Below are positions 1 through 9,232 of a stretch of DNA of 64,000 nucleotides, one piece after another. The stretch is from an uncultured cyanobacterium. Its GTDB lineage: Bacteria; Cyanobacteriota; Cyanobacteriia; Cyanobacteriales; CAWCAG01. Position 1 is the first letter of the stretch; the number at the start of each line of letters is the position of its first letter. The notes beneath the pieces are model-generated. The model saw only the letters and a list, made by a program, of their open reading frames with translations. It was not told where the DNA came from and did not search any database. A program made the translations under genes and the position numbers. Where the stretch lies: the NCBI GenBank assembly GCA_963793425.1, contig CAWCAG010000009.1, forward strand, positions 704,001 to 768,000. The letters are read 5' to 3'.

Positions 1-36
1 ATGCCTTCAAAGCCAGTGCAAATCTGGTCGCCTGCT
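1..36 (+). tRNA. 3' end of a tRNA or tRNA-like RNA truncated by the window edge (identity unknown)
   Basis: T-arm-like GCCAG-TGCAAAT-CTGGT (12-28), then a 7-nt acceptor-like strand CGCCTGC and T. The 5' half lies outside the window. Confidence 0.55.
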
Positions 37-97
37 TTTATATGTTCTAATTAAGGAGGAGAGATTATGTTAGAAAATAAACCAGTTTGAAACTACC

Positions 98-616
98 ATG
101 AAACCTAAAATAAATATCTTGCAGACAAGTATTACCACCCTTAAAATCGATGCTATCGTTAATGCAGCAAATAGTTCTTTATTAGGGGGAGGCGGTGTTG
201 ATGGAGCAATTCATCGAGCCGCAGGACAGGAATTAGTGCAAGAATGTCGTTTGTTGGGTGGGTGCAAAACGGGGCAAGCTAAAATTACTAAAGGTTATCA
301 ACTACCAGCCAAATACGTTATTCATACAGTAGGCCCAGTTTGGCAAGGTGGCAAGAATGGTGAAGCAAAGTTATTAGCTTCTTGCTATGATTCTTGTTTT
401 CAGTTAGCTAAAAAACATCAACTTAAAACTATAGCTTTTCCGGCTATTAGCTGTGGAGTTTATGGCTATCCTATTGAGCAAGCAATTCCTATTGCTTTTC
501 AAGCTACTTTAAACTTTTTATCTCAAAATGAGAGCTTCAAAGAAGTAATTTTTGCTTGTTTTAGTGATGAGGTTTACTCGTCTTATTTAAAGGTGAAAGA
601 AGAGTTACTAAATTAG
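98..616 (+). CDS. Macro-domain protein (YmdB-like O-acetyl-ADP-ribose deacetylase / ADP-ribosylhydrolase)
   Basis: [31 protein letters not shown] and [12 protein letters not shown] macro motifs. Confidence 0.95.
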
Positions 617-717
617 TTTGACGATCACTTTTGTTAACGGAGTTAAATAATACCTAGCATAGATTAAATAACTGCGAAATTGTGTCATATTTAAGGTGAA
701 GTAATCTAAGGTAAATC

Positions 718-1161
718 ATGTTAGAAGTTTCTGAGCATCCAATGGGTAAGATCATCACCAAGTTAACCATAATCAATCGTGCCGATCAAAATGTGGCAGC
801 ACGAGGATATATTCCGACAGATGAAGTGCGCTCTGTCACCCTAGATAACGTTTTGGTAGATACAGGAGCAACAACTCTTTGTTTGCCAGCTAATACTATC
901 GCTAAACTTGGTTTAGATATCCTCAAAGAAGTTGATGTAGAAACAGCTAATGGCATTGGTAAAGCAAGAATTTTTCAGGATGCAAAAATCTCTTTATTAG
1001 GTAGAGAAGGTACGTTTGAATGTTTAGAATTGCCTGGTGGTACTAACCCTTTGTTAGGAGTTATCCCTTTAGAAGCTTTAGGCCTTGAATTAGATTTACA
1101 AAATCAAAAGTTAGTTACTTTGCCGATTAATCCCACCAAAACTTACCTAACAATTCTTTAG
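718..1161 (+). CDS. Clan AA (retropepsin-like) aspartic protease
   Basis: LVDTGAT catalytic motif, ETANG flap and LLG motif; 147 aa. Confidence 0.85.
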   Translation: MLEVSEHPMGKIITKLTIINRADQNVAARGYIPTDEVRSVTLDNVLVDTGATTLCLPANTIAKLGLDILKEVDVETANGIGKARIFQDAKISLLGREGTFECLELPGGTNPLLGVIPLEALGLELDLQNQKLVTLPINPTKTYLTIL

Positions 1162-1195
1162 TAATTTTTAGGTATTAATCAAAACAAAAAATCTT

Positions 1196-1266
1196 GCGGA
1201 TATAGTGTAAAGGTAGCATCTGAGCTTTCCAAGCTTTAGGTACGAGTTCAAATCTCGTTATCCGCT
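1196..1266 (+). tRNA. trnG: tRNA-Gly(TCC), no encoded CCA
   Basis: Acceptor GCGGATA/TATCCGC; anticodon loop TT-TCC-AA; T-arm ACGAG-TTCAAAT-CTCGT. Confidence 0.92.
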
Positions 1267-1294
1267 TGCCTAGTTTGCCAAAAACTAGCAACAA

Positions 1295-1367
1295 ACCCCT
1301 ATAGCTCAGCGCAGAGAGCAGCGCCTTTCTAAGGCGAGAGTCCTAGGTTGGAATCCTAGTGAGGGTG
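1295..1367 (+). tRNA. trnR: tRNA-Arg(TCT), atypical, no encoded CCA
   Basis: Acceptor ACCCCTA/TGAGGGT (one mismatch); D-stem GCTC/GAGC; loop TT-TCT-AA; T-arm CTAGG-TTGGAAT-CCTAG. Confidence 0.85.
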
Positions 1368-1427
1368 TTTAAATGTAGTAAAATAAAGGAGGTTATTTTC
1401 TGTTGCAACTAATTAAACACCGCATCT

Positions 1428-1672
1428 GCAATACAATCGCATTATCTAGCGTGACCTAATCATGAGAGCATACATACCGAGTACGAGAGGAATAAGTACC
1501 TCTGCCCTAGTTGCAGAGGGCGTGAAACATTGTTGGTACAAAGAACCCGGCAGGTTGGCTTAGAAGCAGCCATCCTTTAAAGAGTGCGTAATAGCTCATC
1601 GGCGGAGTGCCTTCTGATGTGATGAACGCTAAAAAGCTCTGATAACTTGCACGCCAAGAGCGATTGTATTGC
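1428..1672 (+). ncRNA. Putative ribosome-mimic ncRNA: sarcin-ricin loop plus 23S H42-H44 (uL10/uL11-binding GTPase-associated centre)
   Basis: Perfect 13-bp terminal helix GCAATACAATCGC (1428-1440) / GCGATTGTATTGC (1660-1672). AGTACGAGAGGA at 1480-1491 is identical to the SRL of the 23S in this window (62912-62923, minus strand). GTTGGCTTAGAAGCAGCCATCCTTTAAAGAGTGCGTAATAGCTCA at 1554-1598. Confidence 0.85.
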
Positions 1673-1802
1673 CATAAAAAAAATACCTTGCACAACAAAG
1701 CTATTCTACTTTGAATAAAGTTTGCTCATTCAGATTTGCAGCAAACTCTAGTACCTCTAGCAATGTTTAATGTTTAATGTTCAATGATTTAGGGAGTTAA
1801 CC

Positions 1803-3092
1803 ATGCCTGTAATTGTGATGGAAGTTAAGAGTGCAGAGAAACATCCTCATGCTGATACTTTGCAGCTCTATACTATGGTTGCTCCGGGTTATGAACAGGT
1901 ACAAATTGTTGCTAATCTGGAAAATATTTATCAAGTTGGTGATGTTGTGGCTGTTGCTTTAGTTGATTCTGTGCTTAAAGATGGGACGAAAATCAAACCT
2001 GTTAAGCTTAGAGGTATTTACTCTTTTGGTATGGCTTTAGGAAAAGTAGAAGCTGCAATTGCGAGGAATCTATCCCAAACCTATTGCCAAAAGGAGATAG
2101 TAGATAATGTACAGCTACAAAAATGGCCGAGTATTGAACTTTTAGCTAATGTACGTCGGAGTTTAGAAATTCTGGAGAAAACACCATCTGTTACTTATCG
2201 TAGCAAAGTCAAGCTAGATGGGACAAATGGTGGAGTGCAGATTTTTGCGAATGGTAAGGTTGCGGCTCAAAGTAGAACACAAATTATCACTCCAGAAAGT
2301 GATAATGCTGGGTTTGCTGCTTGGGTAAACCAGAACATTGACTATTTTGCAAACTTGGCTACCTCACAACATTTAACCTTGTTTGGTGAATGGTGCGGTA
2401 AAGGTATTCAAAAGCGTACAGCTATTGCTCAAATTGAACGTAAAGTTTTTGCTATCTTTGCGGTGCAATATGGAGGCATAGGTAGTCAGGTTGCTAAGTT
2501 AGCAGTTAATCCGGCTTCTATCCGTGCTTTGCTACCAGAACATTCTGACATTTTTGTCTTACCATTCTGGGGAGAAGCAATTACCTTGGATTTCGGGAAT
2601 GCAGCACAATTAGCACAAGCTGCTGAGAAGTTCAATTCTCTGGTTGAGGATGTTGAAGCAGTAGATCCTTGGGTTGAAGAGACTTTTGGCATCAAAGGCA
2701 TTGGTGAAGGATTGGTGATGTATCCGCAGAGTGATACCTTGGTAGATAGGCTAGAATATAGCCAATTGTTGTTTAAAGCTAAGGGTGATAAGCATCAGGT
2801 TGTCAAAACCAAAAAGCCTGTGCAAATTGCTCCTGAAGTGGCCAAGGGTGTTGATGAATTTGTCGAAATGTTCATTACGCCAGCACGTTTGGAACAAGCT
2901 ACAACGGAGGCTTGCCAAGGAGGGTTTGTGATGCAGAAAATTGGTGCATTTCTGAAATGGGTTAATACCGATGTTCAAAAAGAAAGTGTGGCTGAATTAG
3001 AAGCCGCAAACTTAACTTGGAAGCAGGTTAATAAAGGGGTGACTAAGGCAGCAAAAGTATGGTATCAGGGGAAGGTAATGGGTAATAGGTAA
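1803..3092 (+). CDS. RNA ligase (Rnl2/Rnl5-like nucleotidyltransferase) with N-terminal tRNA-binding OB-fold
   Basis: N-terminal HPHADTL..KLRGIYSFGM OB motif; ligase motifs KLDGTN (I), FGEW (III), EGLV (IV), FKAK (V). Confidence 0.88.
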   Translation: MPVIVMEVKSAEKHPHADTLQLYTMVAPGYEQVQIVANLENIYQVGDVVAVALVDSVLKDGTKIKPVKLRGIYSFGMALGKVEAAIARNLSQTYCQKEIVDNVQLQKWPSIELLANVRRSLEILEKTPSVTYRSKVKLDGTNGGVQIFANGKVAAQSRTQIITPESDNAGFAAWVNQNIDYFANLATSQHLTLFGEWCGKGIQKRTAIAQIERKVFAIFAVQYGGIGSQVAKLAVNPASIRALLPEHSDIFVLPFWGEAITLDFGNAAQLAQAAEKFNSLVEDVEAVDPWVEETFGIKGIGEGLVMYPQSDTLVDRLEYSQLLFKAKGDKHQVVKTKKPVQIAPEVAKGVDEFVEMFITPARLEQATTEACQGGFVMQKIGAFLKWVNTDVQKESVAELEAANLTWKQVNKGVTKAAKVWYQGKVMGNR

Positions 3093-3105
3093 TAGGTAAT
3101 AGGTA
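3074..3105 (+). repeat. Heptamer tandem repeat (GGTAATA)n, STRR-type
   Basis: ggtaatg ggtaata ggtaata ggtaata ggta, spanning the ligase stop codon. Confidence 0.85.
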
Positions 3106-3229
3106 TGATCTCAAATCTGGTTCATAAAGTGCCTTGATAAAATCATGGCATCAAGTTTTCAAACCCTGCTCCCTACTCCCTACTCCCCACCCTAACCGAT
3201 AACCTTTGCAACCAAACCCAGGACTTAAT

Positions 3230-3685
3230 ATGACTATCTACTTCTATGGCCCTCGTGTCAAACCCTATGGTTGTTTTTCCAACTTTTCTCGTCATGGTTT
3301 TGAGTTAGACGGTGCTTGGTGGGCTACTAGTGAGCATTATTTTCAAGCACAAAAATTTATCAATACTGATGCAGAATGGGCTGAAAAAATTCGTGGGGCT
3401 AAAAGTCCTAAAGAAGCTGCTAAAATGGGACGCGATCGCAATTATCCTTTACGCAGTGATTGGGAAAAAGTTAAGGATGGCATTATGCAACGCGCTGTGT
3501 TGCAGAAGTTTTCTACCCACAATGATCTCCGTGAGATTCTTATTAATACAGGGGATGAGTTAATTGTGGAAAATGCTCCCGGAGATTACTACTGGGGTTG
3601 TGGCAAAGATGGCAGCGGCAAGAATAAGTTAGGAGAAATTCTCATGGCAGTACGAGAAACTTTGCAGAAGAATCAAGAGTCGTAA
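3230..3685 (+). CDS. NADAR (YbiA-like) family protein
   Basis: FSNF, SEHYFQAQKF, LVENAPGDYYWGCG and GKNKLGEILM motifs; ATG at 3230 preferred over TTG at 3206. Confidence 0.93.
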   Translation: MTIYFYGPRVKPYGCFSNFSRHGFELDGAWWATSEHYFQAQKFINTDAEWAEKIRGAKSPKEAAKMGRDRNYPLRSDWEKVKDGIMQRAVLQKFSTHNDLREILINTGDELIVENAPGDYYWGCGKDGSGKNKLGEILMAVRETLQKNQES

Positions 3686-3736
3686 AGGTAATCGGGAAGA
3701 GTTGATAGTAACATCTTCCCAACTTCCAATAATTAA

Positions 3737-3996
3737 GGGGAGGTTGTCTAAAAGGCAAGACACCGTAGAAAAGTTTTAAAACGGTTCCCACAAGGACAAT
3801 CGGGTTTTCCTTAGTAAGGTCAAAAGTTGCATCGCGACATTCCCTGAATGGGCAAACGGGTAACAGGTTGCAGAGGCACTGAAAGGAATTAATAGTCCGA
3901 AATGGGGGTGGTTCCCATTTGCTGTAAAGGTAGTAAGGAAGCACTTTTCCTGAAAGTTACCGTCGGTTGATGCGGGTTCAAATCCCGTCCTCTCCA
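3737..3996 (+). ncRNA. tRNA-Ala-like RNA with about 200 nt of structured sequence in place of the anticodon arm
   Basis: Acceptor GGGGAGG/CCTCTCC with G3.U70 and discriminator A; D-arm GTCT-AAAAGGCA-AGAC; T-arm GCGGG-TTCAAAT-CCCGT; no anticodon loop; internal long-range helices. Confidence 0.75.
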
Positions 3997-4041
3997 TTTT
4001 TAAAATCGGGAGTTTTGGAGTGTTGCAAAGAGGAAAATTAA

Positions 4042-4140
4042 GGGAATGTAGCTCAATTTGGCAGAGCAACCGACTTTTAATCGGTTGGTTGTGGGTAACT
4101 CCTAACGGAGACGCTACGCGAACAAGTCCCACCATTCCCA
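4042..4140 (+). tRNA. trnK: tRNA-Lys(TTT) with a 26-nt insertion in the T-loop (possible pseudogene)
   Basis: Acceptor GGGAATG/CATTCCC; anticodon arm ACCGA-CTTTTAA-TCGGT; T-stem GTGGG/CCCAC interrupted at 4097-4122. Confidence 0.88.
4097..4122 (+). mobile_element. Small dispersed repeat (SDR-like) insertion
   Basis: AACTCCTAACGGAGACGCTACGCGAA forms two mini-hairpins; a related copy lies at 33100-33123. Confidence 0.7.
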
Positions 4141-4188
4141 CTTTTTCATAAAGGGGAGAAAACTATTAAACATTGGCAAAAACAACAT

Positions 4189-4253
4189 TTCGTATTCTTG
4201 CTCGGAACGAGGCAATGCGTTGCAGAAAAGTCATTGCTAAGGAAGAATGCGAA
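4189..4253 (+). ncRNA. Putative three-way-junction structured RNA
   Basis: 11-bp closing helix TTCGTATTCTT/AAGAATGCGAA encloses hairpins CTCG/CGAG and GCAATG/CATTGC. Confidence 0.45.
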
Positions 4254-4314
4254 GGCGCGAGGCAGAATGTAGTCTGAGGTGAGACTATGATTTTGCTTTC
4301 GCGCCCTTTTTTTT
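4254..4314 (+). terminator. Long hairpin plus T8 tract, likely terminator of the tRNA/RNA-repair island
   Basis: GGCGCGAGGCAGAAT..TAGTCT / AGACTA..ATTTTGCTTTCGCGCC followed by C and TTTTTTTT. Confidence 0.75.
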
Positions 4315-4351: not shown

Positions 4352-7300
4352 TTACCAAGGACTCCCAATCATAGTAAAAGCACTCCAATAATAAGGATGA
4401 TTCAAATTTTCATCCCCTAATGCAGCTAAATTTTCTGGTAAGGGAATTTCAATTTCTGGAGTAATCAGCTTGCCGTCTTGCAACTTAACTTCCCCTCTAA
4501 TCATCGCTAGTTGCGCTTGGCGCAGGGCTTCTGCTTTAATGGGGGCTACCTTGAGTTGCTCGTAGAGTGTAGCCATAAACCCTAAAGTACCTTCATCGCT
4601 TACTGTCCATAAGCTTCCCAGGGCTGATTTAACTCCGGCTTGGTTAGCTAACCCAGCAAAGCCTAATTCTGATTCCACACTGCCCACAGCAGTACGACAA
4701 GCACTTAATACCATCAACTCTACCGCAGGCTTATTTAAACCTAGTTGCCGCAATTGATCTAAACTAATTTTCTGGTCCCAAAATTGAATGTATGAATTAC
4801 TGGGTTTACCAGCATTAAATTCAGCATGGGTAGCGAGATGAACGATACCAAAAGGTTTATTAGCACGTTCTGATTTAAGATTTCCCGGAGTGAATTTGTC
4901 CCCCAGCAAAGATTTACCCGGCCATAAATTGTTAGCAATTGTCTTTATTTCTATAGGTACAGCAGGTAAATCTGGTAATTCAGCAAATGTCTCGGTTCCC
5001 ATGGCTAAGACTTCCATGTTTTTAACATCAACATAGCGAGTGTCAGTCAGAGAGAGACTCGGCATCAAACCTAAGCTATATTTTTCCAGGACAAACTGTT
5101 CACCATCGTGAAGCGCGGCAATGGGGATAGAACGTATCCCAGTATCTAGTATAAAAGCGAGGTTATTAATACCTTGTGCCTGCAACTCCTCTTCTAAGGG
5201 GGCAAGCAGCCATTGATATAGTTGTTGGGACGGGACTAGGTAAGCATTGGGACGGGAAGGATTAGTGATGGTGCGGCGAAAGGTTTTAGCAACTTGTTGT
5301 ACCTTGGCACGAGTTATGCCTCGTATCGGTTTGCGGAGGATTTTTCCTTCGGCGGTTAAGAGAACAAGTTCCAATTGATCATCTTCTTGGGGAGGAAATT
5401 TTAAGTTGTTAGACTTGCTTTGTTGTTTGTCCCCCTTATTTTCTGAAGGTGCAGCTAATTCGGCCGGGAAAAAGGCAGCGTAAATAAGGGCTGGTTTGAC
5501 TCCTGTTTCTCTGTTGATGCTGCGTAAGATATCTTTAGCTTCATCTAAACTAGTAATTTCGTTATCATCTTCTTCACCAAAGTAATTTTCAAAATCCTCA
5601 GTAAATTTCTCCTCTAATTGCTGAATGATGGGGTCAATTTGCAATTGGGGAACGGGTTGGTCAAAATTAACTTTTGGCAGAGGAGTTTCTTCGGGAAGAA
5701 TATCATCTGGAACAGGATCATCTACGGCTATGGTTGCTACATCAATGCTTACTGGTTGCTGAGTCGAAGAGACACCATCGCTAACACTGATGGTAAAACC
5801 ATTTACACTGCCTGTAGTTCCTGCTGGGGGTGTGTAAACTAAAGTATCTCCAGAAGAAATAACCGTTCCTGCTGTTGCCGTTACGCCGTTAACTGTGAGG
5901 ATGCCTGCATCAATTGATACGATAGTGATGGAGGTGAGGTTATCACTGTTCACATCCCCAGTAATTGGGTTTAAATCAGCAAAGGTGAAGGTAAAAGGTT
6001 GGTCTTGTAGCGCCCCGGTTAAGGAGTTTGCTGTTAGGGTAGGGGGTGTGTTGATGGAGGTGATAGTAATATCTGTTGGTGTCCCGGAAGCAACACCACC
6101 ATTAGGAAGGACAGGGAAAGTAGCCAGTATCAAGGAGGCTAGTACCTGTGTTAATATCTCCTGCTAAACCATTAGTACTAGCATCGCCAATGCTGAAAGG
6201 ATTGTTGTCAGTACCGCCATCATGGGTGATGCTAACATTGCCCCCTTGAATATTACTAATATCACCTGCTGCGGTTGTTGCCTCAGTATCAATAGTATTA
6301 CCAGCAAGAAGCCCTCTTACAGTGCCATTATTAGCTGTGATAGTTACTTGGCCTCCCCTCGCTGTGTTAGTGTCAAAGCCTCTACCGTAAGCTGTTGTAT
6401 CTATGCTATCGAAGATTATATTGCTGCCCGATGTTGTACCAGATGTTAAGCTGACATCACCCCCAGTTGCTAAAGTAGGACTATTTCCTCCATTGGTAGA
6501 GGCAGAGGTATTGATAATATTGGTCGTGATTGTTGTCCCTGCTGTTAAAGCAACATTACCCCCAGTTGCTCGATCATCTGCATAAGCGAAAGGTTTCTGT
6601 TATTGGCATAAGAGTTAATGTTTCCTGTGGAAATACTACCTCCGGCATTCAAAGTAACATTACCACCAAAACTCATATCGTCAGCAGGATATTCGATATC
6701 GGCGTAGGAGTTAATGTTTCCTGTGACAATGCTACCTGTTGTGCTACTAATGTTAATATCTCCGCCACTATTGATTAATCCAAAATCATCGGTATTAAAA
6801 GTATTAACTGCTCCAGTTTGCACATCACCAGTTGCTTCTATAATTAAAGGGCCACCGTAATGGGTAAAGCCATCAAAACCGACATCAATATCCCCTACAT
6901 TGATACTTCCAGTGGTAGGAGTCCCGGAACCATTAAAAGTAGTTCCTCCTGTAGTTTGGGGTGTATTAGCTGTATTATCTAAGCTAGTTTTTCCTGCTTG
7001 CAAAACTAACCCACCGTTACCTGTAGTTAAGATGGTAAAGTGAGGATCGCTTGTCGGTATAGCACCGGGAGTATCTGCTCCGTTGATAATAATGTTGCCA
7101 CCGTTAATACTGCCCAGAGTTTCTACTTTTAGAGAAACCCCTGTATAATTACCAAAGGTAACATCCCCTGTAGAACTAATGATGGGGTCATAAAAACTAA
7201 CAAAGTTGCCTCCATCTCCTTGTAAGTTAAGGATGGAAAACTTACCGCCACTGAGATAGTGGGCATCCCCAGAAATAAAGCCGTCACTAACTAAACTTAA

Positions 7301-9232
7301 GTCGCCACCACTTACAAAAGGAGTTTGGCTATGTTGCAAAGCTAAAATATCAATGGCTTTGTCCCCTTGAATGTAGAGATTGCCCCCTGCTTTTATTTGT
7401 AAAGGTTGGTTGGCACTATCTCTGGCATAAACAGTATCTTTGGCTTTGAGGTCTAAATCCCCTGTGGTTTGTAAGTTGCTCTCAACTAAAGTTAAGTTAC
7501 TCGCTGCTGCTAAGGTGGCACTTTCTGCGGTTAACTGATTTGCGGCCACATCCCCTACTCCCACCGTTGTATCAGAATTGCTTAACTGGGCTTCTCCTTG
7601 GGCATTAACTTCTAAGCCTGTTTCACCTACATCGCTTCCGGTTAGCAATTCTGGTAACATCAAAGGGTTAATAGGTACAGGATCTCCTTGACTATTGGTA
7701 GGTGGTTCAATTTCCAAACCTAAAATATGCCCAGCTTGGTTAATTCTTACCCGACTACTTCCTGGTACAGCACTGATAGTAACATTACCTCCCTGTGCCT
7801 GCAATGTTCCTGTACTAGCGACAGTACCGCCAATTAAGGAAAGGTTGTTACCCTCGCTTACTGCCAAATCCCCAGCATTAATAATTGCCCCCGGTTGTAA
7901 GCTGTTGAAGACAAAAGCATTGGGATTACCTACCAAAGAGTTATAATCGTTTGTGCCAACACTATTAAAAGTCCCTCCCTCGAAACCAATTCCTGTTGCC
8001 GTAGTAGCAGAAAAGGAACCAGGTACATTTAATTGGGCATTGCTACCAAAAACCATACCAGCGGGGTTCATTAAAAAGAGGTTAGCATTGCTGCCTGTGA
8101 TTTGAATTAAACCATTTATTACCGAAGCATTGCCCCCGACAACTCGACCTAAAATGTTATTAATACCAGGTTGAGAAAGGAAATTAGCAGTTTGGGATGC
8201 AGAAAGCCCAAAGTCTTGGAAGCTATGGAAAAGATTACCCCCATTCCCTGATAAGCTTCCTCCTTGAATATTAAACTGGTTGCCAGTTTGGTTAATAATA
8301 GTCCCCGTACCATCACTAGCTGAATTAATGGTTTGTGCCTGGGCATTGAAAGTGGTTGTTAAACATAAAGTTGTGAGTAAGGTTGAGAAAAAACTAAAAC
8401 TTGCATTGGTTTTTAAAAACTTGATGGGTAAAGTGTAAAACTGTTTAACCGCATTTTTAATCGGACGTAAACCCAGCCAAGCTTCCATCTGGCAACCAAA
8501 GCCTTTAGTTTTAATAACTGCCTCGTAGCGATCCCTAAGCCCTCTTCGCTTCAATGCCCTTAAAGTTGCCCCATAAGTTGCATAAATTTGTTCGGCTCTT
8601 TTTTGGTAAGAAAAACTCTCTGGGTTGCTGCGATAATAATAAAGAGGTTTGGCTAAATGTTTAATTTCTGTTGCTTCAGAAAGTCTCAAACAAAGGTCAT
8701 AATCTTCTGTATATAAAGATTGGCTATCAATACCTCCCACTTCCTCAAAAACCGCGCGGCGTATCAGCCGAAAATGGAAAGTCATAAAGTTGGTTAATAA
8801 TTGATGAGGAGAATAAGCAACCTGAGTTCGCTGACCATAGCCAAGTACTTTACCATTATTATGGAGATCCCAATAATCGGTATAAACCATACCTGCATTA
8901 GAGTTAGCTGCCAACACAACTAAAGTCTCTTCCAAAGCCGTCGGTGCAAGAAGATCGTCACTATCTATCCAAGCTAAATATTGCCCCTGAGTTGCGGCGA
9001 TTCCAGCTTGCAAAGCCGGTACTCTACCTTGATGTTTTGCGGCGATAATACGAACTCGTGGATCTTCTTGAGCATATTTGTGAGCAATAGCTAGGGAATT
9101 ATCCGTAGAACCATCATCCCAAATTAATAGCTCGAAATCTGGCCAGGTTTGCCTTAAAATACTCTCTATGGCAGATCCGAGCAACTTTTCTCGATTATAA
9201 GAAGTAATAACAATTGAAATAGGAACTACCAT
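4352..9232 (-). CDS. GT2 glycosyltransferase - filamentous haemagglutinin (TPS) - CHAT fusion, broken by two compensating frameshifts (about 6590 and about 6122)
   Basis: N-terminal GT2 (DDGSTD, WIDSDD, EDYDL); TPS motifs NLFHSF and NPAG; Gly/Asn/Thr repeats; C-terminal CHAT (HLATH, LSAC, PYYWSAF). The 6122-6590 segment is open in another frame. Confidence 0.75.

Follow-up and report, generated by a model that had tools for sequence, protein, structure and literature searches.

What purpose is served by a gene cluster that intersperses transfer RNA (tRNA) genes with RNA-repair enzymes and with an RNA resembling pieces of 23S ribosomal RNA (rRNA)? The question is raised by the left end of a 64,000-nt stretch of DNA, here called the window, from an uncultured cyanobacterium (contig CAWCAG010000009.1, positions 704,001 to 768,000; G000:C9:704001-768000, where G000 denotes the genome under study). 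The cluster, referred to below as the island, was interpreted in the original prediction as an anti-ribotoxin or translation-damage response combining replacement, decoy and repair, an interpretation that is partly supported by the present analysis. What that prediction overlooked is that a class of tRNA arrays to which the island belongs in reduced form, the L-arrays, has already been published (PMC8421152). We consider it rather probable that it represents a translation-stress operon, a compact and horizontally acquired relative of L-arrays, whose rRNA-mimic RNA is a Y RNA of the Ro60 type. The tRNA arrays and their regulation are already known, as is the association of Macro proteins, NADAR proteins and ligases with RNA repair.

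The evidence starts from a 206-nt RNA at 1449-1654 (+ strand), delimited by an Rfam match, an alignment and covariation. Positions 1535-1611 matched the bacterial large-subunit (LSU) rRNA model of Rfam with 61 bits (gathering score 50; E 1.8e-16), and since only model positions 1080-1157 of 2925 were covered, the RNA does not qualify as a full-length 23S gene. This part copies helices H42-H44 of 23S rRNA and is identical to the GTPase-centre region of the organism's own 23S at 35 of 37 positions. A sarcin-ricin-loop core at 1480-1492, identical to the own 23S at 12/12 positions and followed by a variable hairpin, lies 43 nt upstream of the LSU match, whereas in the own 23S it is found approximately 1500 nt downstream. 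The presence of both modules in one RNA, as originally predicted, was thus borne out. The molecule is closed by two nested helices, P1 (5′ strand 1449-1453, 3′ strand 1650-1654) and P2 (5′ strand 1465-1469, 3′ strand 1636-1640), with GATAACTTG at 1641-1649. An internal ACGC as closing helix and a pseudoknot were both considered and rejected once longer flanks had revealed nested P1 and P2.

An alignment of 30 distinct sequences with a structure of 43 pairs showed pairing in 94.3% of cells (shuffled 90.4 ± 0.4) and compensatory change at 13 pairs (shuffled 6.1 ± 1.4); 0 of 500 shuffles reached the observed values, slid controls paired at 34-50%, and the shuffle statistics overstate independence, as the 30 sequences come from few genera. 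The variable hairpin covaried at 4/5 pairs and P1 (8 bp) displayed compensatory change in 3/6 core pairs, while the sarcin-ricin-loop core and H43/H44 were invariant across the sequences. Covarying stems around invariant rRNA-like cores indicate a selected mimic rather than a pseudogene. That the unit is a chance product or consists of pseudogene fragments of 23S rRNA can practically be dismissed: the identity to the own 23S does lie in two short stretches, but regions that are far apart in the own 23S are united here in one 206-nt unit, and the same two-core arrangement was found once each in 23 of 401 cyanobacterial genomes (9 of 156 genera, all of the same order as this genome), whereas the reversed pattern had no match in the 401 genomes. 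Viral contigs yielded no match to the mimic-RNA pattern either.

The RNA copies the region of 23S bound by ribosomal proteins L10 and L11, precedes the start of the ligase by 149 nt in the window, and stands directly before or after the ligase gene in many loci, an arrangement that would suit a cis-regulatory leader controlling the ligase gene through L11 or L10. Such a role is nevertheless very improbable. In four loci (L080, L085, L086 and L088; L-numbers are locus labels) the mimic RNA is followed by tRNA genes and no ligase occurs within the stretch in view, which speaks against a leader function for the ligase gene, and in L017, L018, L019 and L023 the mimic RNA comes after the ligase. 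Moreover, the RNA is closed by its own terminal helices, and a leader would have no need of a sarcin-ricin-loop module. Thus, like the leaders of ribosomal-protein mRNAs, it copies a protein-binding site of rRNA; unlike them, it stands alone as a closed RNA, has two rRNA modules and is not tied to a ribosomal-protein gene.

The scaffold that holds the two rRNA modules was also recognised in a second operon of the same genome (G000:C5:852700-855720; L073 720-3717), located behind a TGTAGTAC/TGTAGTAT tandem operator. This operon comprises, in order, a 66-aa frame, four RNA units, a paralogue of ribosomal protein L7/L12 (L073 1715-2101; NCBIfam L12 99.8 bits; 42% identity to the genome's other copy), a fifth short unit and a 480-aa protein, the fifth unit being an "empty" scaffold just ahead of the start codon of that protein. 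Three of the RNA units are circularly permuted tRNA-like modules of the YrlA type, and two of these three were matched by Rfam YrlA (E 1.7e-5 and 7.6e-5). An outer helix, the loops CCYAA and (A/G)ACTTG, a covarying inner helix and the sequence AGC(C/T/A)TACA(T/C)AC are common to all units of the operon. The 206-nt mimic RNA carries these scaffold parts in identical order; the loops CCYAA and GATAACTTG are common to it and the YrlA-like units, and AACUUG followed by CGC in its 3′ strand matches the Rfam YrlA consensus.

YrlA RNAs consist of a Ro60-binding stem formed by the RNA ends and a tRNA-like effector module, with Ro60 contacting chiefly the 5′ strand (preprint 10.1101/312249; PMC4201824). 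In the mimic RNA, P1 and P2 are likewise formed by the ends of the molecule and enclose it. The tRNA-like effector (T arm, closed acceptor and D arm) was not found within them, its place being taken by the sarcin-ricin-loop hairpin, the variable hairpin and H42-H44, and Rfam YrlA (RF02553) gave no match at 1449-1654. To judge from its sequence, the mimic RNA would work like a Y RNA without being a YrlA. A separate YrlA match at 3950-4083 (24.3 bits against the gathering score of 69) spans the T arm of one tRNA-like element and the D arm of the next, and was rejected as a tandem-tRNA artefact, a source of error of YrlA searches named in PMC4201824.

The 480-aa protein of the second operon (G000:C5:854274-855713) is predicted to have the Ro60 fold. 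Its AF2 model consists of a helical-repeat domain followed by a vWA domain, and Foldseek ranks 1-12 for this model were all Ro60, Rsr or TROVE proteins (E down to 7e-12, TM 0.54-0.70, 460-500 columns). In Pfam, only a weak VWA_2 match was obtained, phmmer against the PDB gave no match, and the ESM atlas provided a lead only. A gene for the Ro60-like protein was present in 23/23 of the genomes with mimic RNA, compared with 23/378 of those without it in the set of 401, and 8 genomes carry both on a single contig at a distance of 5-12 kb. A count of scaffold units at 14 Ro60-like loci, all from genomes without mimic RNA, gave 42 on the strand of the Ro60-like gene and 0 on the opposite strand, and in 13 of the 14 loci scaffold units lie upstream of this gene. 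Since the 23S-like RNA is set in a Y-RNA scaffold that is tied to a Ro60-like protein, the likely mechanism shifts from a free decoy to a ribonucleoprotein.

Some further observations concern the scaffold and its loads. The L7/L12 paralogue between scaffolded RNAs and the Ro60-like gene is also found in L094, L095 and L098, that is, in 3 of the 14 additional loci. Payloads at L027:12181, L021:14449 and L055:14691 match a third site of the own 23S by BLAST (19/19, 29/33 and 16/17 positions), and the same payload type occurs in L093-L096, L100 and L102. We take this site to be the helix-69 region; Rfam did not call these payloads, and the label is based on BLAST to the genome's own 23S. They look like a second kind of putative rRNA-mimic Y RNA beside Ro60-like genes in other cyanobacteria. 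In arrays of the Microcoleus type (L016:3042, L020:9995, L022:9997, L049:10163 and L050:10280), the 260-nt RNA described below has immediately after it a short scaffold unit whose payload is limited to about 25 nt; such a unit is absent from the window.

Comparison with the known Ro60 (Rsr)-YrlA-RtcB systems (PMC4201824; 10.1101/312249), such as Salmonella rsr-yrlBA-rtcBA, revealed both likenesses and differences. In both cases a long stem formed by the RNA ends is joined to an effector module, RNAs of this kind adjoin a gene for a protein with the Ro60 fold, and a regulon is held in common with RtcB. In contrast, the effector of the mimic RNA copies rRNA rather than tRNA, the RNA is located within a tRNA array, Pfam TROVE fails to detect the Ro60-like protein, and control would be exerted by a TrcR-type repressor rather than by RtcR and sigma-54. 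In the literature searched, no paper was found in which YrlA or Ro60 is connected to the sarcin-ricin loop, to an rRNA mimic or to L-arrays, nor one that describes an rRNA-mimic Y RNA. To our knowledge, the effector modules of bacterial Y RNAs described so far are limited to a PNPase-binding loop and a tRNA mimic.

The island itself begins approximately 640 bases left of the window, at a promoter located in the 18 kb immediately to the left (L005), which were searched for a promoter and further tRNAs; every gene and RNA element is on the + strand. This stretch contains, at L005 17364-17955 (+ strand), the promoter and genes for tRNA-Cys(GCA), tRNA-Tyr(GUA), tRNA-Ser(GGA) and tRNA-Met(CAU), in agreement with the leftward extension that had been predicted. 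The promoter is of the sigma-70 type and close to consensus (TTGACA, 17 nt, TAATAT), approximately 130 nt ahead of the first tRNA, and holds TGTAGTAT and two related repeats, TGTAGTAT, TGTGTAAT and TGTAGTGA being placed around TAATAT. In Anabaena sp. PCC 7120, TGTAGTAT is the footprinted TrcR site overlapping the -10 box of the trn operon (PMC10272220), a silent array of 26 tRNAs that is switched on by ribosome-targeting antibiotics (PMC8421152). The island thus resembles the TrcR regulon in that repeats of the TGTAGTAT type lie at or overlap the -10 box, and also in that rtcB has a similar repeat. Because the operator is identical in sequence to the published TrcR operator, the unit should be silent and stress-induced.

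Further members of this putative regulon were found elsewhere in the genome. A tandem repeat with a TTGACG -35 box lies directly upstream of rtcB (Pfam RtcB 429 bits). Of the genes for which the original prediction had advised inspecting the upstream sequence, rtcB and a Ro60-like gene are encoded elsewhere in the genome under the same type of operator. The published autoregulatory operator motif of trcR has an exact 18/18 copy at G000:C5:612618 (L072 2119-2136), flanked by a 121-aa frame (- strand) and an 80-aa frame (+ strand), neither of which gave Pfam or NCBIfam matches; the 121-aa frame is a trcR candidate, identified solely by its position next to this motif. Operator-like tandems precede 13/23 of the arrays in which the first tRNA in view is at least 300 nt from the locus edge, compared with 1/1040 random windows. 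As a side observation, a truncated KptA/Tpt1-like frame (G000:C7:584951-585200, - strand), which covers profile positions 127-176 only (37.4 bits) and is the only KptA-like sequence of the genome, has an operator-like tandem repeat about 80 nt upstream of it and may belong to the same regulon in decayed form.

The tRNA content of the island agrees in part with that of the L-arrays. All the elements of the original prediction were recovered, and the unit is indeed a single co-oriented one, with a strong operator-bearing promoter at its start and one terminator at its end. There are about 9 tRNA-type genes (six ARAGORN tRNAs and three tRNA-like genes), and in a genome with 50 tRNA genes every island anticodon duplicates a housekeeping one. 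The "tRNA-like end" seen at 1-36 belongs to a weak tRNA-Thr(UGU)-like gene (L005 17963-18036, + strand; E 0.02), of which it forms the 3′ part and which begins 37 nt left of the window. Within the window follow tRNA-Gly(UCC) at 1196-1266 (ARAGORN; Rfam 61.8 bits) and tRNA-Arg(UCU) at 1295-1367 (ARAGORN; Rfam 49.9 bits), both supernumerary and on the + strand. The best identity of the island tRNAs to array tRNAs of other cyanobacteria was 76-87%, compared with 61-79% to the genome's own housekeeping copies, so that they are nearer to array tRNAs elsewhere than to those of their host; tRNA-Gly(UCC), for instance, shares 47/71 positions with the housekeeping copy and is up to 87% identical to array copies elsewhere. 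As in Anabaena 7120's trn operon and the L-arrays (PMC8421152, PMC10272220), the tRNAs are co-oriented, supernumerary, of foreign origin and redundant in their anticodons. Four island genes, those for tRNA-Cys, Tyr, Met and the Thr-like tRNA (L005 17526-18036), were also seen to have T loops of the sequence TGCAATT, TGCGAAT or TGCAAAT, with G in place of the universal U55, a variant shared by some scaffold units of L073.

Gene order is conserved as well. The succession Met, Thr, [protease], Gly, Arg, mimic RNA and ligase is that of other arrays, in which [NADAR] and Ala/His/Ser follow. A scan with the ligase alignment, with one genome per species, returned 66 loci, 57 of which have a ligase at least 55% identical; among these 57, 27 have at least 5 tRNAs, 4 are short contigs with 3 tRNAs and 26 are without tRNAs. 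The linkage proposed for the ligase therefore recurs, with the ligase among co-oriented tRNAs in 31/57 cyanobacterial loci. In the 27 loci with at least 5 tRNAs, 603 tRNAs are on the strand of the ligase and 0 on the opposite one, and the 23S-like RNA was present in 20/31 array-linked loci compared with 0/26 stand-alone ligase loci. Of the 57 loci, 7 also have the protease, in each case inside an array, 8 have NADAR and 2 have Macro, and all copies in array-linked loci are co-oriented with the ligase. Outside the cyanobacteria, a ligase relative was observed inside an array of 18 co-oriented tRNAs in a metagenome-assembled genome of the Neisseriaceae (L066); it is 40% identical, the match not including the OB part.

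In published L-arrays, protein genes are "linked or embedded" and enriched for RNA processing and translation (PMC8421152), and the ligase may already have been drawn in Figure 6 of that paper. Neither 23S nor NADAR is mentioned in the main texts of PMC8421152 and PMC10272220 or in one supplement of the former, where Macro occurs in species names only and Ro60 was not searched for. The island differs from L-arrays in being far shorter, with its about 9 tRNA-type genes well under the 20-43 of the described arrays, and in having four protein genes and three non-tRNA RNAs interleaved with them.

This small size, to be compared with 20-40 tRNA genes in related arrays, the several low-scoring tRNAs, the aberrant T loops and the T-loop insertion of a Lys-like gene would also suit a decaying remnant of a horizontally acquired mobile tRNA array whose RNAs and genes no longer serve the host, as would an unconserved 3′ end of the island and the lack of any open frame of at least 80 aa in the roughly 600 nt just upstream of the promoter. 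We regard this explanation as quite unlikely. The four reading frames are intact and their catalytic residues invariant, promoter, operator and terminator are intact, and the mimic RNA retains every invariant position of its family. Furthermore, the 260-nt RNA shares 87% identity on average with its copies in genomes whose ligase proteins are just 65-67% identical.

The island encodes four proteins. The ligase gene (1803-3092, + strand) encodes an ATP-type RNA ligase with a tRNA-binding OB domain, a nucleotidyltransferase domain and a helical C-terminal domain (Pfam tRNA_bind and RNA_ligase). The motif I lysine is K137 in KLDGTN, and motifs III, IV and V are also kept, as expected of nucleotidyltransferases of the Rnl2/Rnl5 class; K137, E196, K325 and K327 were invariant in 16 sequences, and F194-G-E196-W, E302-G-L-V and K325/K327 were invariant or at least 90% conserved in them. 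Profile searches matched T4 Rnl2 in the PDB (E 3.4e-5) and a PHROG RNA ligase family (E 1e-49), whereas a single-sequence search of the PDB with the catalytic part returned nothing significant. The top Foldseek matches were Naegleria RNA ligase (E 1.6e-7) and T4 Rnl2 (E 1.3e-6), with TM values of 0.22-0.33 only from a weak model in which the catalytic domain is poorly resolved (pLDDT <50 in residues 107-141 and 284-343). The enzyme resembles the nick-sealing ligases of tRNA repair of the phage T4 type (Rnl2, Rnl5 class) in its motifs, in profile matches and, weakly, in fold matches; unlike those systems, it has an N-terminal tRNA-binding OB fold of the Trbp111/PheT type, assigned by Pfam and PDB profile, and an end-healing kinase-phosphatase is absent from the island.

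The other three protein genes, all on the + strand, encode a Macro-domain protein of the MacroD/YmdB type (98-616; Pfam Macro 166.3 bits; NCBIfam O-acetyl-ADP-ribose deacetylase NF001664, 226.4 bits against a cut-off of 200), a retropepsin-like aspartic protease of clan AA with a VDTGAT motif (718-1161; Pfam gag-asp_proteas 33.6 bits, Asp_protease_2 29.9 bits) and a NADAR-domain protein (3206-3685; Pfam NADAR 146.8 bits; TIGR02464 163.2 bits against a cut-off of 73.7) close to a phage family (PHROG E 6e-39). Genes for RNA repair are known to have Macro and NADAR as neighbours (PMC9503650). The two proteins may strip ADP-ribose from RNA, NADAR being able to reverse ADP-ribosylation of RNA bases (PMC11833690), or alternatively may clear the ADP-ribose by-products of KptA-type RNA repair (PMC9503650). 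PADLOC gave weak matches only, of the protease to PDC-M08B and of NADAR to PDC-M42C, both models of candidate systems, and nothing for the ligase, Macro, the Ro60-like protein, the 66-aa frame (orf66), the L12 paralogue or the TrcR candidate.

This gene content would also suit a system operating free of Ro60, in which the mimic RNA alone lures toxins that cleave or modify the sarcin-ricin loop or the GTPase centre, spare tRNAs replace cut ones, and ligase, Macro and NADAR repair the damage. A toxin that ADP-ribosylates H44 of the GTPase centre is known (PMC8661411), as is the reversal of RNA base ADP-ribosylation by NADAR (PMC11833690); ligase and NADAR both have the close phage families mentioned, and in this genome the Ro60-like gene is unlinked to the island. 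Nevertheless, we hold this combination to be unlikely, as it leaves unexplained both the conserved, covarying P1/P2 scaffold that the mimic RNA shares with the YrlA-like units and the 23/23 co-occurrence with the Ro60-like gene, and a decoy for an enzyme, acting as its substrate, would need to be in large excess over ribosomes to protect them.

Several results nonetheless weigh against the reading of the island as a translation-stress operon with a Ro60-type Y RNA. Besides the limited independence of the aligned mimic RNAs, P2 (5 bp) covaries weakly, with a double change in 1/5 pairs, and the YrlA matches of the second operon (36.5 and 34.3 bits) fall under the Rfam gathering score of 69. The model of the Ro60-like protein is moderate only (pLDDT 75.1, pTM 0.57), Pfam TROVE (PF05731) had no match in this protein or in the genome, and the Ro60-like operon and the mimic RNA are on different contigs. 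Rfam scores of the island tRNAs for Tyr (30.7 bits), Met (38.4 bits) and the Thr-like gene (28.8 bits, gathering score 29) are low, and a set of about 9 tRNA-type genes fits decay as well as economy. Finally, we infer the co-transcription and induction of the island and the ends of its RNAs from sequence features, as we do the binding of the mimic RNA scaffold by the Ro60-like protein, which is the most likely partner.

The remaining part of the island, downstream of NADAR, holds RNA genes. The "tRNA-Ala-like RNA" of the original prediction does have tRNA-like ends, but it is in fact a 260-nt structured RNA (3737-3996, + strand) delimited by nhmmer, conservation and RNAalifold, in which an acceptor (G3-U70), a D arm and a T arm, all tRNA-like, are combined with a branched insertion of about 190 nt; CCA is not encoded. 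Seven array homologues were found by nhmmer (E 6e-46 to 5e-53), conservation across these seven loci begins and ends sharply at both ends, and RNAalifold yielded 73 pairs, 5 of them compensatory. Identification as a transfer-messenger RNA (tmRNA) was rejected (Rfam 18.2 bits against a gathering score of 47), the genome's one ARAGORN tmRNA lying elsewhere, and so was a group I intron in a tRNA or an RNase P RNA, for which Rfam gave no matches. The weak tmRNA and YrlA matches of Rfam fall around 3905-4083.

The predicted tRNA-Lys was recovered as a tRNA-Lys(UUU)-like gene at 4042-4140 (+ strand; Rfam tRNA 57.7 bits), in which the anticodon arm with UUU is kept; it requires a 31-nt insertion that expands the T loop, and it was not called by ARAGORN. 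An insert of about 30 nt with two mini-hairpins (window 4094-4127) was seen to be conserved in tRNA-like genes of differing anticodon loops (L024:4725-4830, L024:3600-3703, L027:10145-10252 and L027:5643-5761), which suggests a mobile or functional module. The 3′ region (4141-4314, + strand), predicted to form a three-way-junction RNA, does fold well (minimum free energy -58.9 kcal/mol, z -5.16, 0/200 shuffles as stable), but nhmmer found no homologue of it in the loci searched. It ends in the intrinsic terminator of the original prediction, whose long hairpin occupies 4254-4305 and whose run of 8 U occupies 4307-4314; it was found by folding, a simple terminator scan having made no call for it.

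Two observations fall outside the functional elements. The spacer between ligase and NADAR (3073-3240) contains heptamer repeats of the GGTAATA type and a stretch of about 85 nt that recurs at more than 40 other places in the genome with 74-97% identity, and is thus a dispersed short repeat. Downstream, on the - strand (window 4352-9232), lie genes unrelated to the island for a CHAT-domain protein with a cadherin-like domain and for a large frame of 895 aa, whose start appears glycosyltransferase-like and whose repetitive remainder appears haemagglutinin-like in translation.

If the translation-stress reading is correct, the island would be silent by default and turned on when translation is impaired, through loss of a labile TrcR-type repressor at the TGTAGTAT-type repeats. 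A precursor of approximately 5 kb would then give rise to the spare tRNAs, the Macro and NADAR ADP-ribose hydrolases, the retropepsin-like protease, the ligase and the 260-nt and 206-nt RNAs, all the RNAs, tRNAs included, being freed by RNase P and RNase Z. The Ro60-like ring would bind the P1/P2 scaffold of the 206-nt Y RNA, whose effector module would be a protein-free copy of the factor-binding centre of the ribosome (sarcin-ricin loop and H42-H44) in place of a tRNA mimic. This module might tether to the ring a partner that recognises the site, be it a toxin or antibiotic, the stalk proteins or a translational GTPase, while the regulon's hydrolases and ligases would reverse ADP-ribosylation and mend breaks in tRNA and rRNA. 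Whether as decoy or as tether, the role of the mimic RNA is one that we infer. Within this frame, a bait for toxins or antibiotics aimed at the factor-binding centre is possible although rather doubtful, the tethering of stalk proteins or translational GTPases is a little more doubtful, and other roles make up the remainder.

A broader reading, which we put forward tentatively and would not yet call probable, is that of a modular family of Ro60-bound Y RNAs in cyanobacteria, with interchangeable payloads that copy functional parts of the translation machinery, namely tRNA, the sarcin-ricin loop with the GTPase-associated centre, and the helix-69 region of 23S rRNA. A labile repressor that senses arrested translation would govern the induction of these RNAs along with that of spare tRNAs, RtcB, a second RNA ligase and ADP-ribose hydrolases. 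The RNAs would act as baits by which ribosome-directed toxins, antibiotics or idle translation factors are led to the Ro60 particle, thereby protecting or resetting ribosomes.

The analysis reveals a widespread cyanobacterial Ro60 family that had been missed by domain searches. Stress-induced tRNA arrays under TrcR and RNA repair by Ro60, Y RNA and RtcB, hitherto separate fields, appear to be united in one regulon. If true, a natural "ribosome in pieces" would be available as a reagent for studies of the recognition of factors, antibiotics and toxins, and a Y RNA that presents the factor-binding centre would provide a concrete, testable hint on the role of the bacterial Ro60 particle. The combination of spare tRNAs, RNA-repair enzymes and an RNA that mimics the factor-binding site of the ribosome points to an undescribed way of guarding translation.

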